NCBI GenBank assembly: GCA_017508605.1
Contig: JAFVYN010000069.1
Span: 1 to 50,498 of the forward strand
DNA length: 50,498 nt
Reading direction: 5' to 3'
DNA from: Clostridia bacterium
GTDB taxonomy: Bacteria > Bacillota > Clostridia > Oscillospirales > CAG-272
Shown: positions 4,017 to 49,869 of the stretch, piece by piece
How positions within the stretch are numbered: position 1 is the stretch's first letter
How the letters are laid out: each line of letters begins with the position of its first letter
Position numbers and translations under genes: made by a program
The notes under the pieces: generated by a model
Database searches by the model: none
Seen by the model: only the letters and a program-made list of their open reading frames with translations
What the model was told of the DNA's origin: nothing

Positions 4017-5276
4017 TCACCGTATCTGACCGCTTCCCTTGATGCGGTACTGATAGCTGACAAGTGCCTCGAGTCCGAAGGGGCCGCGGGCATGAAGCTT
4101 TTGGGTGGAGATCCCCATTTCACAGCCAAGACCGAATTCACCGCCGTCGGTAAATCGGGTCGAGGCATTGTGATAAACAGCCGCGGCATCTACCGTGGAA
4201 AGAAAGCGCTCCGCGGCGCTTTCATCCTCGGTCACGATCGCCTCACTGTGTCCCGTTGAATGCGCGCCAATATGCATCAGCGCCCCGTCAAGCGAGTCAA
4301 CGACCCTGACGGCAAGAATGAGATCAAGAAATTCGGTGTCAAAGTCGGTATCGGACGCCCTCTCGCTGTCGGGCAGGATCGCTCTTGCCCGCTCATCACA
4401 GCGAAGGCTGACGGGGGAAAGCCCTTTTTCCCGTCTTTGCTCCACCAGCCGCTTCCAAACGAGGGGCAAAAAGCTCTCGGCAATCGCACGATGCACCAAA
4501 AGGACCTCGGCAGCATTGCAGACCGAGGGGCGGGAGGTCTTGGCATTGTCAAGAATGGACAGCGCCATATCGGTCCTTGCCGCTTTGTCCACGTAAATAT
4601 GGCAGATACCCGTCCCCGTTTCGATGCAGGGCACCGTCGCTTGCTCAACACAGGTACGAATGAGCGCTTTGCCCCCTCGCGGTATGAGAAGGTCGAGATA
4701 TCCCTTCGCCTTCATCATTTCCTCTGCCGAAGCGCGGGATCGGTCTTCAACGAGAAGGATCAGATCCTCGGGGCAATTTGCCGTCCGCAAGGCGCGGCGA
4801 AGTGCTGTCACGATGGCATTTGCCGACTTCCATGCCTCCTTGCCCGTGCGAAGCAGAACGGCATTGCCGCTCTTGACGGCGAGCGCGGCGGCATCCGAGG
4901 TCACGTTCGGTCGGCTTTCATAAATGATGCCCACCGCCCCCAGCGGTACCGTCATTTTGGTGATCACAAGTCCGTTCGGGCGCAAGTACTCCCCGATACA
5001 CCGACCGAAGGGAGCGTCAAGCGGAATCAGTGCGCGAATGCCCCTTGCCATGTCCGAAATACGCTCAGGCGTCAGCATCAGACGATCAAGCATCGCGGGG
5101 GACAGCCCCTTTGCTTCTTCAAGATCCTCGGCATTTGCCGAAAGGATCGCCTCACGATCATCTTCCAGCGCATCCGCCATCAGGGAAAGCGCTTCGTTGA
5201 CACGCTTCTCGGTAAGCCCTCGCGCAAGACGGGATGCCGCCTTGACACGCCTCAGAAGTTCTTTCGTTTATGTCAT
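4017..5276 (-). pseudogene. proA: Gamma-glutamyl phosphate reductase ProA with an in-frame TAA at codon 3 (uninterrupted ORF only from 5180)
   Basis: ATG 5276..5274 overlaps the proB TGA stop (ATGA). The reading is ATG ACA TAA (5270..5268) ACG AAA GAA..., giving MT*TKELLRRVKAASRLARGLTEKRVNEALSLMADALED. The full frame of 420 codons matches the usual ProA length. Confidence 0.8.
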
Positions 5277-47728: not shown

Positions 47729-47928
47729 ACTATCACCGTCCTTTGAATAAAGTATCGTACAAATTCAACGTTTTTCAATGAAGCATTCGCTTCGTGAATC
47801 AAGCATGAAGCGAAGCGCACACTAACTTCTCCGCGAGCCGAAGGCTTCTGCTTCAATTTTCATGGGCGTCAGCGTGCTTCATTTCCAAACAAAAAAGATG
47901 CCATCAATACTATAGCATAATTTTGAGC

Positions 47929-48124
47929 GTTTGTAAAGAGTGATGTTGCGACTTCGTCGCAATGATGTAGTGCTAACGCACAGTGATGTATTGCGCCTTC
48001 GTCGCAAAGTGATGTGATGTTTGCCCACTTCGCCGTAAGGCGAAACATCACTCACGCAGTGAACATCACTGCCGAAGGCTACATCACTTGCCCGCAAGGG
48101 CAAACATCGTTCCAAACAAAAAAG
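47929..48124. repeat. Structured repeat element, copy A (heptamer GTGATGT/ACATCAC spacers alternating with mini-hairpins)
   Basis: It lies directly 3' of the SUKH gene. There are four GTGATGT-like heptamers (47940, 47962, 47983, 48009) and four ACATCAC-like heptamers (48045, 48063, 48081, 48104). They are separated by hairpins at 47947-47961, 47970-47981, 47991-48007, 48029-48044, 48052-48062, 48071-48079 and 48089-48102. Confidence 0.85.
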
Positions 48125-48130
48125 ATGCTT

Positions 48131-48670
48131 TTAAAACTTATTCCATTTAGTTCGCAACCATGAAACAAAACGATTCCATCTGACTTGTATTGGAGAATAA
48201 ACGGGAATATCATCATATTTTGCAGGTTCTATTTTTTCACACAAATTCTTAAAAGAATTTGCAAGGAAAATCATATCCTTGAGAGAAATAGTATTTACTT
48301 CTTTCTCATCACAATCCATTATTTCATGGTCGAAAAAATATATTTTACCGTATGTTTTTGTGAAGAGCGACATACAAATTTGATTTCCGCAATCATCTTC
48401 AGCAATAGGGATGCATTTTGAGGGCAACCTGTTTTTGTATATTTCATAGGTCGACTCCATATCAGGATAGCTTCGGGTACTTATTCCATAGAAATAGCGT
48501 ATGTTTATTTCTCTATTTGGAAATTTTACAATGTTCGAATCAAGTTCAGCATTGTTATGCAACAATAAATAATCAATAAATTCATCGGGGAATATTGCAC
48601 CTATTTTTTTACAAAACACATCGTATTTTAAATGATCAAATGGCTCTTTGTTAGGAGATGTGCCGACCAT
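48131..48670 (-). CDS. SMI1/KNR4 (SUKH-1) family immunity protein, orphan
   Basis: It is AT-rich (about 32% GC in a sampled line). The motifs IGAIFPDEFIDYLLLHNNAEL and IPIAEDDCGNQICMSL...GKIYFFDHE are typical of SUKH-1. Confidence 0.75.
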   Translation of the reverse strand: MVGTSPNKEPFDHLKYDVFCKKIGAIFPDEFIDYLLLHNNAELDSNIVKFPNREINIRYFYGISTRSYPDMESTYEIYKNRLPSKCIPIAEDDCGNQICMSLFTKTYGKIYFFDHEIMDCDEKEVNTISLKDMIFLANSFKNLCEKIEPAKYDDIPVYSPIQVRWNRFVSWLRTKWNKF

Positions 48671-48713
48671 ATTTCCACCGCCTTTCTGGTTTTTTTATAT
48701 CGCATTTTGGGCT

Positions 48714-48908
48714 GTTTGTAAAGAGTGATGTTGCGACTTCGTCGCAATGATGTAGTGCTAACGCACAGTGATGTATTGCACCTGCGGTGCAAAGTGATGT
48801 GATGTGTTCCTTACTCACGCGCGAAGCGCACATCACTTCCGAAGGAAACATCACGCACGAAGTGCGCATCACGTTCCGCGCAAGCGGAACACATCGTTCC
48901 AAACAAAA
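48714..48908. repeat. Structured repeat element, copy B
   Basis: Its first 66 bp (48714-48779) are identical to 47929-47994. The remainder keeps the same architecture with different stem sequences. Hairpins lie at 48776-48792, 48819-48829, 48837-48847, 48855-48865 and 48873-48890. Confidence 0.85.
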
Positions 48909-48934
48909 GAGCACTGCTCTCGCAGTGCTCTTTT
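48905..48934. terminator. Bidirectional intrinsic terminator downstream of the UDG-like gene
   Basis: AAAAGAGCACTG ctctcg CAGTGCTCTTTT forms a perfect 12-bp stem that includes the A/T runs. Confidence 0.75.
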
Positions 48935-49077
48935 GTTTGAGATGTGTTGACAAAAAAGATGCCACCTTGAAAACGGCATAAACCCTTATATTTCAAGGAT
49001 ATTTGGCACTTTTTGAAAAGTTTTTCAAATCTTTTTCAAATCTTTTTTGAGTTTGGTGGGATATTCGTGAAAAATAA

Positions 49078-49129
49078 AGATTTGACAAAAAAGATGCCGG
49101 TTGACAACTAAGATTTGACAAAAAAGATG
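49078..49129. repeat. 19-bp direct repeat AGATTTGACAAAAAAGATG, two copies
   Basis: The copies lie at 49078-49096 and 49111-49129. Both contain the 14-mer that recurs five times in the 47.9-49.1 kb region. Confidence 0.8.
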
Positions 49130-49182
49130 TCGTGATGGGGTTAGCGTAGAAATGAGTTCTGCGCTTAAATTCAATTAGTTGG

Positions 49183-49869
49183 TTACTTCATAACTTTTCT
49201 TATTTCCGTAATTACTTTTTCTTCGTATTCTCGTGGTTGGCGGTTTGGATGCCATGTAAATATATAAAATATTCCATCTTCCTCAATTACATATACATCT
49301 TTTTTTGCAATTCTCTTCGCATTTCCATATAACTTGTCATATATTGATGGTAACTCTGCACGCAAAGAAACACCGTACCAACCGAAAAACACCACTATAT
49401 TCGGACGAGCAATTTTAATTTCCTCATACAATACTTTAGTTTCTGTGGAATGTAATGCTTTTCTATCGCTAACGGATAATTTATATTTTAAGCCGCCATT
49501 CCATTGTAGACTATGAATTTTGTCAATGTTATTCCAAATGAAAGATGTGTTCGGTGATTTTATTTTTCTTATACGTCTCCAAAAAGGACTTTTATTGTAA
49601 TCTGGATCTTCTTTATTTCCATTTAACTGTGTATTTAAATAATAAAGTATCCATCCTTGGATTTTTTGCATCGTCCATTTTTGCCTTTTCCCACAGCCGT
49701 TTTCCCCATACCCCTCTTCTCCAACTATCATAATCCTGTTGTCTGACTGATTCCAATCTTTTGGAATCGCCATGTAATAAGGATTTGAGTATTTGTCATC
49801 AGAAAAGTGAGGAGCTATTTCAGATAGTTCTTCATACCATTGCAAATAAAGTTTCGTTAACTCATCCAT
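49183..49869 (-). CDS. Hypothetical protein with a uracil-DNA-glycosylase-superfamily-like motif pattern (228 aa)
   Basis: It is AT-rich. The ordered motifs resemble family-4-type UDGs. IMIVGEEGYG compares with GEAPG, and FIWNNIDK with the N-x-x-K/C strand. ARPNIVVFFG compares with the P-x-x-I-x-x-L-G strand, and FTWHPN with HPS/HPA. The fold assignment rests on pattern recall only. Confidence 0.45.
   Translation of the reverse strand: MDELTKLYLQWYEELSEIAPHFSDDKYSNPYYMAIPKDWNQSDNRIMIVGEEGYGENGCGKRQKWTMQKIQGWILYYLNTQLNGNKEDPDYNKSPFWRRIRKIKSPNTSFIWNNIDKIHSLQWNGGLKYKLSVSDRKALHSTETKVLYEEIKIARPNIVVFFGWYGVSLRAELPSIYDKLYGNAKRIAKKDVYVIEEDGIFYIFTWHPNRQPREYEEKVITEIRKVMK

Follow-up and report, generated by a model that had tools for sequence, protein, structure and literature searches.

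Gut-1 (Rfam RF01706) was reported in 2010 and judged to be a probable non-coding RNA, found in human-gut metagenomes only and presented without a proposed function (Weinberg et al., PMC2864571). We found no literature on Gut-1 after 2010, and it has been an orphan Rfam family since then. Its Rfam model covers three short hairpins of one arm, and the gathering cut-off of the family is 50 bits. Here, we analyse two structured elements, A and B, in a 50,498-nucleotide (nt) stretch of DNA (hereafter the window) from a Clostridia bacterium of the Oscillospirales (CAG-272; contig JAFVYN010000069.1 of assembly GCA_017508605.1).

Our results indicate that Gut-1 corresponds to one arm of a larger modular element with two arms, and A and B are evidently distant relatives of Gut-1 that are similarly built. 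The GUGAUGU-type two-armed form is new; the Gut-1-type design is already known. In the reading that we favour, and that we put forward with middling confidence, A and B represent a dispersed DNA repeat of uncultured gut and rumen Clostridia that is non-coding, non-autonomous and associated with terminators, belongs to a Gut-1 superfamily and resembles miniature inverted-repeat transposable elements (MITEs) and repetitive extragenic palindromes (REPs). No new biochemical mechanism is demonstrated, and the one outlined below is proposed conditionally.

Two-armed elements and their relation to Gut-1

A preliminary description of the window had placed A at 47929–48124 and B at 48714–48908. Inspection of the sequence, pairwise alignment and a covariance model (R1, built from 57 copies of the family) all recover the two copies there. 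Their cores lie on the minus strand at 47939–48111 (A) and 48724–48898 (B), and R1 matches A and B only, with no third copy in the 50-kb window. The element is a pseudo-palindrome because its short words alone, and not its hairpins, are complementary between the two arms. It is nevertheless clearly asymmetric, with R1 scores on the minus and plus strands of 185.7 and 71.2 bits for A, and of 146.1 and 50.6 bits for B. The first 66 base pairs had been reported as identical, and the alignment indeed contains no difference between 47929–47994 and 48714–48779; the likeness of A and B also runs on into the flank (115 nt at 88% identity). A coding region and a chance palindrome were rejected; the only open reading frames (ORFs) that overlap the element are spurious.

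The word RTGATGT occurs 25 times on the two strands of the window, against 10.9 ± 3.0 times after shuffling (0 of 100 shuffles reached 25), and 15 of the 25 occurrences fall within A and B. The earlier count of four forward and four reverse heptamers per copy was roughly right. On the plus strand, the left half of each copy carries five RTGATGT words, two of which overlap; the right half carries three exact reverse words (i.e. minus-strand RTGATGT) and then a terminal ACATC in A, and two exact reverse words, one GCATCAC variant and a terminal ACATC in B. Read on the minus strand, A consists of four GATGT-hairpin modules that form a Gut-1-like arm, a central GGGCAAACATC-ACATCAC and three hairpin-ACATCAY modules. 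B has the same architecture, but its 5′ arm in this reading is of the GTGTTCC type and not of the TTTGCCC type. The two copies are mosaics because one arm is exactly common to both and the second arms differ, that of A being like the arm at locus L096 and that of B like those at L123 and L122. B aligns with L123 (601–897) at 94% identity across 299 nt, and the flanking ORFs of the two are different.

To look for further copies elsewhere had been proposed at the outset, and many were found. A pattern search in a collection of species-representative genomes, with three heptamers, free spacers and 23 specified bases, returned more than 118 stretches against ∼2 estimated by chance, most of them with the same architecture, and R1 identifies 84 copies of at least 100 bits in ∼70 non-homologous loci. 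All carriers of these 84 copies are uncultured Clostridia that come from ruminants, horses and similar animals (rumen, colon, caecum or faeces), and they are affiliated with Oscillospiraceae, Acutalibacteraceae, Ruminococcus and 'Eubacteriales'. The metagenome-assembled genome SIG702 contains at least six copies over five contigs, and several other genomes contain two or three. Many copies are cut by contig ends, as expected of repeats. Among viral contigs there were eight pattern matches, none of which fits R1, and BLAST searches with a 298-nt module gave no match in plasmids and one weak 60-nt match, in an unannotated contig, in phages.

The Gut-1 model aligns over its full length (positions 1–77) with the minus strand of both A (48040–48112, 37.9 bits) and B (48825–48899, 31.5 bits), and gives weaker plus-strand matches to their other arms. 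Both scores miss the gathering cut-off, and by Rfam's own criterion A and B are not members of the family. The preliminary description had recognized no named family; this is correct in that no Rfam match to the elements reaches threshold, but it overlooks these full-length, sub-threshold matches to a family of the same design. At the gathering threshold, the window and 33 loci yielded only a T-box leader, tRNAs, 5S rRNA and one true Gut-1. The sole above-threshold family in the window itself is a T-box leader (RF00230; 122–354, minus strand, 96 bits), which is unrelated to the element.

The layout of the elements is that of Gut-1, i.e. at least three short hairpins with a conserved GUGAxxU linker, here GUGAUGU for GUGAAAU, and their stems covary as those of Gut-1 do. 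Some rows of the Gut-1 seed have GUGAUAU words, a downstream arm of AUAUCAC hairpins and the same long-range helix, and lie after a tRNA or gene plus terminator. At locus L038, the true Gut-1 match (63.2 bits) makes up the first arm of an element (4286–4730) that is complete with both arms and that R1 detects too; this element has GUGAAAU words in its 5′ arm, AUAUCAC words in its 3′ arm and a long-range helix GAAATAAATCC/GGATTTATTT, and both a duplicated 3′ end of a tRNA and a terminator precede it. The words of its two arms are not perfectly complementary. The same contig also carries a GTGATGT-type copy (367–536) after a 5S rRNA and tRNA cluster. One-armed elements also exist.

In brief, Gut-1 and the window elements are alike in that (i) short covarying hairpins occur in runs with a GUGA-type heptamer between them; (ii) both occur in gut Clostridia-type sequence only; (iii) both are placed after a tRNA or a gene plus terminator; and (iv) the seed rows and the true match at L038 carry the second arm and the long-range helix of the element. 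They differ in their words (GUGAUGU in the element, GUGAAAU or GUGAUAU in Gut-1) and in extent, as the Rfam model describes a single arm and the window element is two-armed and ∼173 nt long. At two other loci (L025, 3331–3560; L100, 5493–5692), GTGATAT/ATATCAC arrays, a word variant of Gut-1, directly adjoin a unit of GTGATGT type (sub1, see below), so that arrays of different word families can share one intergenic region.

Folding, covariation and strand signals

On the minus strand, one copy reads AAC-GATGT-H1-GTGATGT-H2-GTGATGT-H3-RTGATGT-H4-GT-GGGCAA-ACATC-ACATCAC-H5-ACATCAY-H6-ACATCAY-H7-ACATCAC, where H1–H7 are perfectly self-complementary hairpins of 11–18 nt whose sequence varies from copy to copy. 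The linker words are conserved and the stems are not, with 26–41 distinct sequences at each hairpin position. The core ends AGTGATGT...ACATCGTT are inverted relative to each other, and among the relatives there are arm variants with 0, 1, 3 or 4 modules. The spacing between heptamers (18 to ∼30 nt) follows hairpin length, and a double-stranded iteron array was rejected because this spacing is not constant. The two elements fold far better than shuffled sequence on either strand, with z-scores of −8.5 and −6.5 as DNA and of −8.3 and −5.0 as RNA. The C-GAA-G loops of the internal hairpins, noted previously, are real.

A long-range helix competes with the adjacent local hairpin in both copies, and its strands are at the positions first given for them. 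In A, its 5′ strand in the plus reading (GATGTTTGCCC, 48016–48026) pairs with GGGCAAACATC at 48098–48108, which overlaps an alternative local hairpin at 48089–48102; in B, GATGTGTTCC (48801–48810) pairs with GGAACACATC (48886–48895). The GGGCAAACATC segment repeats the 3′ strand of H1 and is able to pair with GATGT together with the H1 5′ strand; the resulting 11-bp helix encloses the first arm entirely and is incompatible with H1. Two alternative folds had been suggested from A and B, and covariation supports each of them, the local H1 as well as the long-range helix that competes with it.

Base pairs were counted in a model-based alignment of the 84 copies, which is fitted to R1 and composed of related sequences, and in which much of the 'compensation' resembles an exchange of entire hairpin modules. 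Within these bounds, the compensatory changes first seen between A and B extend through the family. In the seven local hairpins, 87.3% of cells are paired, against 67.8% after shuffling and 33–54% when the partner is slid, and double changes occur in 32 of 36 pairs (521 compensatory cells against 141 ± 12; 0 of 500 shuffles equalled this number). The long-range helix is paired in 97.1% of cells (88.8% after shuffling) and has five pairs with double changes (48 cells against 11.7, again equalled by 0 of 500 shuffles). It occurs in two main types, TTGCCC/GGGCAA and GTTCC/GGAAC, and its GATGT/ACATC part shows rare private double changes at L118 and L051. Wobble cells number ∼39 against the 521 double changes, and many of the latter are transversions (e.g. 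CG to GC or AU), which cannot go via a wobble intermediate.

By contrast, pairing between the GTGATGT and ACATCAC words, which the preliminary description implied, has no covariation support. The nested word-to-word 'rod' is paired in 94.5% of cells against 94.4% after shuffling, its double changes are no more frequent than in shuffles, its sole variable pair does not covary, and an apparent L3/L5′ correlation tracks subfamily structure. Pairing of the words is possible only because they are conserved.

The signals in the sequence are ambiguous as to strand and as to RNA or DNA. The stems are nearly pure Watson–Crick in both readings, with ∼26 G·U pairs one way and ∼24 the other way in ∼900 pairs, and the comparison of G·U with A·C pairs shows no strand bias. 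On the strand with ACATCAC words, the loops of either arm are for the most part C-GNA-G triloops and C-GNNA-G tetraloops (79 of 118 folded hairpins in one arm and 45 of 113 in the other), and those on the GUGAUGU strand are UUC, UGC or UNNC, not UNCG. Hairpins with d(C-GNA-G) loops, e.g. d(GCGAAGC), are unusually stable as DNA. We lean towards the view that the structure matters in single-stranded DNA, on both strands.

A different explanation is that the elements act as a structured non-coding RNA or 3′ trailer of the Gut-1 class, transcribed by read-through from a tRNA or gene upstream or from a promoter of its own. Its stable hairpins would expose the GUGAUGU words in single-stranded form, and the purpose might, for instance, be the binding or titration of an oligomeric RNA-binding protein or a barrier to exonucleases. 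The strong covariation of the hairpins fits this explanation, as do tandem G·A mismatches that recur in two minus-strand hairpins, the full-length matches to Gut-1 on the strand that also carries the upstream genes, and the biased orientation of copies with respect to the genes and tRNAs before them (see below). One-armed versions show that a unit of hairpin plus word can stand alone, and the incompletely complementary arm words at L038 favour recognition of the words over pairing between them. The discoverers of Gut-1 also took it to be an RNA (PMC2864571). However, G·U pairs are nearly absent and unbiased between strands, the loops of the GUGAUGU strand are not of the UNCG type, units elsewhere have no conserved preceding promoter, and many-copy, mosaic and contig-breaking occurrence is the behaviour of repeat DNA. 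Also, the window array sits between an intact terminator and a promoter, and is therefore largely outside both transcripts and probably poorly transcribed. On balance we regard an RNA role as rather unlikely.

Terminators, the cassette island and a proposed mode of spread

The position of the family relative to genes was assessed for 72 copies read from their CGATGT end, with crude gene calls. The nearest upstream feature is a coding sequence on the same strand in 40 copies, a tRNA on the same strand in 12 and a coding sequence on the opposite strand in 20 (i.e. same strand in 52 of 72). All 12 upstream-adjacent tRNAs are on the same strand, mostly 36–53 nt off and typically at ∼41 nt, which matches one terminator exactly, and the downstream neighbours show no strand preference. 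The element starts a few bases from the T-run of the terminator. Most copies are solitary and lie beside housekeeping genes or tRNAs. At three copies next to tRNA genes (L046, 3892–4067 and 5046–5221; L071, 6945–7120), the element end distal to the tRNA gene abuts a tRNA-like 3′ fragment, GGTTCGAATCCAC...TTGACGGAG, and L046 contains two near-identical element-plus-gene units in tandem, ∼1.15 kb apart.

Two subfamilies, sub1 and sub2, have conserved flanks and form larger, uniform units of 355–361 and 326–329 nt, respectively, each of which contains the array between imperfect terminal inverted repeats (L003, L005, L011, L017, L051, L068, L090, L098, L102, L103, L107, L115, L118 and other loci). 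Of 26 such loci, 19 are bracketed by locus-specific complementary arms, which an A-run precedes and a T-run follows, compared with 22% in a control. As the arms are the two halves of a bidirectional terminator, the unit sits in the terminator loop. When unit and arms are folded together on either strand, 15–16 of the 16 outer bases are paired in most tested loci (11–13 in a few), and the unit is folded on itself inside.

The array itself is not a plain intrinsic terminator, a candidate that was rejected because its hairpins lack T-runs; a terminator scan within the cores made three weak calls (48868–48852 and 48869–48853 in B, 48000–48014 in A), in each of which the tail is a linker word. Nevertheless, placement at terminators could mean that the element acts on transcription in cis, either as a hairpin-cluster back-up terminator or insulator or as a double-stranded, protein-binding heptamer array that regulates an abutting promoter. 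The elements are always in terminator regions, the last word of the window-type subfamily lies just upstream of a −35 box, and hairpin clusters have been proposed to end transcription without U-tracts (PMC8355165). But a canonical terminator already stands beside nearly every copy, the arrays have no U-tracts of their own, the varying heptamer spacing does not keep helical phasing, and no conserved promoter was found before or adjoining the sub1 and sub2 units. This makes a cis effect highly doubtful as the primary role.

In the window, the elements belong to a subfamily in which a block of ∼300 nt is conserved, comprising on the minus strand a cassette-end motif, a terminator, the hairpin array, a promoter, a AGAAAGGCGGTG leader and the next start codon. 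The promoter of the block is TTTACA-17-TATAAT-like with its −35 box within the last bases of the element, and the window blocks share 91–94% identity with blocks in other genomes, where the neighbouring ORFs are unrelated. At the end of B, a promoter-like sequence (48694–48722, minus strand; TTTACA-17-TATAAA) was read from the sequence; it has its −35 box in the last bases of B and falls below the rule of the promoter scan as the final −10 base is A. Next come the conserved AGAAAGGCGGTG ribosome-binding region and the start codon of the SUKH gene at 48670, and this leader is conserved across loci with different ORFs. Immediately upstream of B on the minus strand is a bidirectional terminator-like hairpin with a perfect 18-bp stem (48900–48939), which recurs at L119, L094 and L123 with different arrays after it. 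At the end of A, there is an outward sigma-70-like promoter (47909–47937, minus strand; TTTACA-17-TATAGT with TG, 10 of 12 matches in the scan), again with its −35 box in the last bases of the element; only 6 nt and a cassette-end motif follow, with no ORF (an 'empty' slot). The promoter-after-array arrangement of A is kept at L045, L094, L096, L113 and L119.

In other blocks, the words of the arrays are different (ATGAAG/CTTCAT or CATATCATC). A degenerate array of the former, sister family (element C; 47770–47886, minus strand) was recognized in the window by alignment to intact relatives at L119 (1269–1430) and at three sites within L094, and the fold of element C itself does not reach significance (z = −1.5).

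The interval at 48–49 kb has a G+C content of 0.39 compared with ∼0.53 in the rest of the window. Between B and A lies an AT-rich cassette ORF (48131–48670, minus strand) whose earlier SUKH label is confirmed (immunity-type SMI1_KNR4, Pfam PF09346, E = 8.4e-16). The positions of the elements after this gene (A) and after a 'UDG-like' ORF and its terminator (B) also stand, but the latter label does not, as the ORF (49183–49869, minus strand) has no Pfam match at E ≤ 0.01. Its identical protein is encoded on just two 2-kb metagenome contigs (L119 and L120), and no contigs encoding the SUKH cassette protein were found. That one element follows each AT-rich cassette gene is true of the window, but is not a rule of the family, in which this link is confined to one subfamily.

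Each AT-rich cassette ORF is followed, 0–5 nt after its stop, by a cassette-end motif of ∼18–25 nt, GGCATCTTTTTTGTCAAC (RCGCCTC), whose last bases resemble the 3′ end of tRNA-Cys (GCCTCCA). On the minus strand of the window it occurs at 48116–48128 (GCATCTTTTTTGT; 2 nt after the SUKH stop and fused to element A), at 48950–48962 (GGCATCTTTTTTGTCAAC; behind the 'UDG-like' cassette and directly before the terminator and B), and at 49086–49097, 49119–49130 and 47890–47901. It is also found at L094 (five copies), L096 (three), L007, L119, L122, L123, L125 and L126. An identical ORF plus motif precedes different blocks in different genomes, so that the motif marks the cassette boundary. The alignment of L119 with the window ends at 48928, just past the motif and inside the start of the terminator stem, and L119 and L120 both part from the window within ∼20 nt of the motif. 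The junction between the SUKH stop and A and the slot after A have no terminator, which can be explained as what a deletion between the TTTTGT repeats that flank the terminator would leave. Cassette ORFs are generally small and in the same direction, with a G+C content of 0.30–0.39 in hosts of 0.50–0.57, and form islands of one to eight genes that often start at a tRNA. Their products include SUKH proteins, a 23S-rRNA-IVS/four-helix-bundle protein, a helix-turn-helix protein and small membrane proteins.

Such islands invite comparison with integrons: the arrays or the GGCATCTTTTTTGTCAAC motif might be attC- or attP-like sites at which AT-rich cassettes near tRNA genes are captured and exchanged by a trans-acting recombinase. 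Motif-ended, module-separated runs of low-GC ORFs in one direction, often beginning at a tRNA, and the same ORF followed by different modules among genomes are in line with this. The multiple direct and inverted heptamers also recall the arm-type sites that tyrosine integrases bind. However, no integrase was seen in the 8-kb loci or beside the island of the window, most copies are solitary among housekeeping genes, the cassettes have their own promoter and ribosome-binding site, and homologous recombination between modules would suffice for shuffling. Nor does the structure fit, as seven local hairpins with variable spacing and a long-range helix over 173 nt exceed the range of attC and differ from its single long imperfect hairpin (55–141 nt) with R″/L″ and L′/R′ boxes and extrahelical bases. 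We consider such sites improbable. A bolder version, in which the arrays and the stop-adjacent GGCATCTTTTTTGTCAAC motif together form the recombination platform of a previously unrecognized integron-like cassette system in Oscillospirales, is in our judgement a long shot. If it were true, foreign AT-rich ORFs (SUKH, four-helix-bundle and small membrane proteins) would be captured beside tRNA genes by a trans-acting recombinase, and each captured ORF would receive a ready-made terminator, promoter and ribosome-binding site.

Under the dispersed-repeat reading that we prefer, the family would spread by copying into, or right beside, intrinsic terminators, where a copy may be tolerated because, by folding back on itself, it does not disrupt the stem of the terminator. 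The folding of units together with their arms supports the idea that such a self-folding design would let a terminator survive an insertion. The hairpins would act in single-stranded nucleic acid, most likely single-stranded DNA. In the window subfamily, the modules lie between foreign AT-rich ORFs and provide each of these with a terminator and promoter of its own, and the repeated modules could supply homology for cassette shuffling, gain and loss. The preliminary description had proposed either a 3′-untranslated-region RNA or a site of attC/REP type; the REP-type alternative (dispersed, extragenic, with single-strand hairpins) fits better than a plain untranslated-region RNA, and the attC alternative is the part that misfits.

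Several observations count against this reading. An all-against-all comparison of the loci revealed no filled and empty site pairs, and an empty-site pattern for the terminator of L005 had no match in metagenomes. No direct repeats that would represent a target-site duplication were recognized at the unit ends, the flanks being inverted terminator arms. No long, autonomous version within the same terminal repeats, and no transposase or autonomous partner, was present among the loci examined. The orientation bias with respect to upstream genes and Rfam's view of Gut-1 as RNA are equally compatible with an RNA role, and seven separate hairpins under selection exceed what a typical MITE needs. 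In addition, the compensation was counted in an alignment fitted to the model, and may come partly from hairpin-templated repair or the swapping of whole modules and not from selection. Hairpin-templated repair of quasi-palindromes gives instant 'compensation'.

Comparison with known systems

With Gut-1 placed in a larger two-armed modular element, the family becomes part of a superfamily with interchangeable linker words (GUGAAAU, GUGAUAU, GUGAUGU and AUGAAG) that abounds in the uncultured, fibre-degrading Clostridia of the gut and homes to terminators of transcription, some of its members lying inside the terminator loop. The question for Gut-1 shifts from the role of a small RNA to how a hairpin-array repeat spreads and is tolerated at terminators. 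Such a repeat also explains assembly breaks in these metagenome-assembled genomes, and our results draw attention to immunity-type genes in small, variable islands whose framework is a repeated module of terminator, array and promoter.

The nearest parallels outside Gut-1 are with three groups of elements. The first is integron attC sites (e.g. the Vibrio cholerae repeats), in which structure is conserved and sequence variable, as here, and which also have complementary 7-nt boxes; the window element likewise lies between small foreign ORFs of one direction. Unlike attC, the element has no single bulged R″-L″/L′-R′ hairpin. An attC array also implies promoterless cassettes, intI and attI; no intI and no integrase ORF is present near the arrays, the window cassettes bear promoters and most element copies are solitary and outside arrays. 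For these reasons attC identity was rejected.

The second comprises MITEs, Correia elements, enterobacterial repetitive intergenic consensus (ERIC) sequences and pneumococcal BOX elements, all of which, like the element, are non-coding and of uniform size, occur in many copies, have inverted-repeat ends, fold into long structures once transcribed and can bear outward promoters. The sub1 and sub2 units and the core ends share with MITEs terminal inverted repeats, uniform length, many copies and the lack of coding capacity, and the number of internal modules varies as it does in BOX. The element differs from MITEs in that no target-site duplication or parent insertion sequence was found, in its placement inside or right after terminator hairpins and in its interior, where independent hairpins follow one another in place of a single long inverted repeat.

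The third is the REP sequences of Proteobacteria with their mosaic and paired forms (BIME and REPIN). Like these, the element is a many-copy, extragenic sequence at gene 3′ ends or between convergent genes, in which hairpins adjoin a conserved short word and both orientations are clustered, and both are thought to be active as single-stranded DNA. It is not a REP or BIME in the strict sense, as it has no conserved palindrome of 20–40 nt with a 5′ tetranucleotide. REP has a cognate RAYT transposase (of the Y1 HUH type), which the hosts of the element are not known to have. The host phylum is not the same, and the conserved parts are reversed: in REP the stem sequence is conserved, whereas in the element the stems are free and the linkers are kept.

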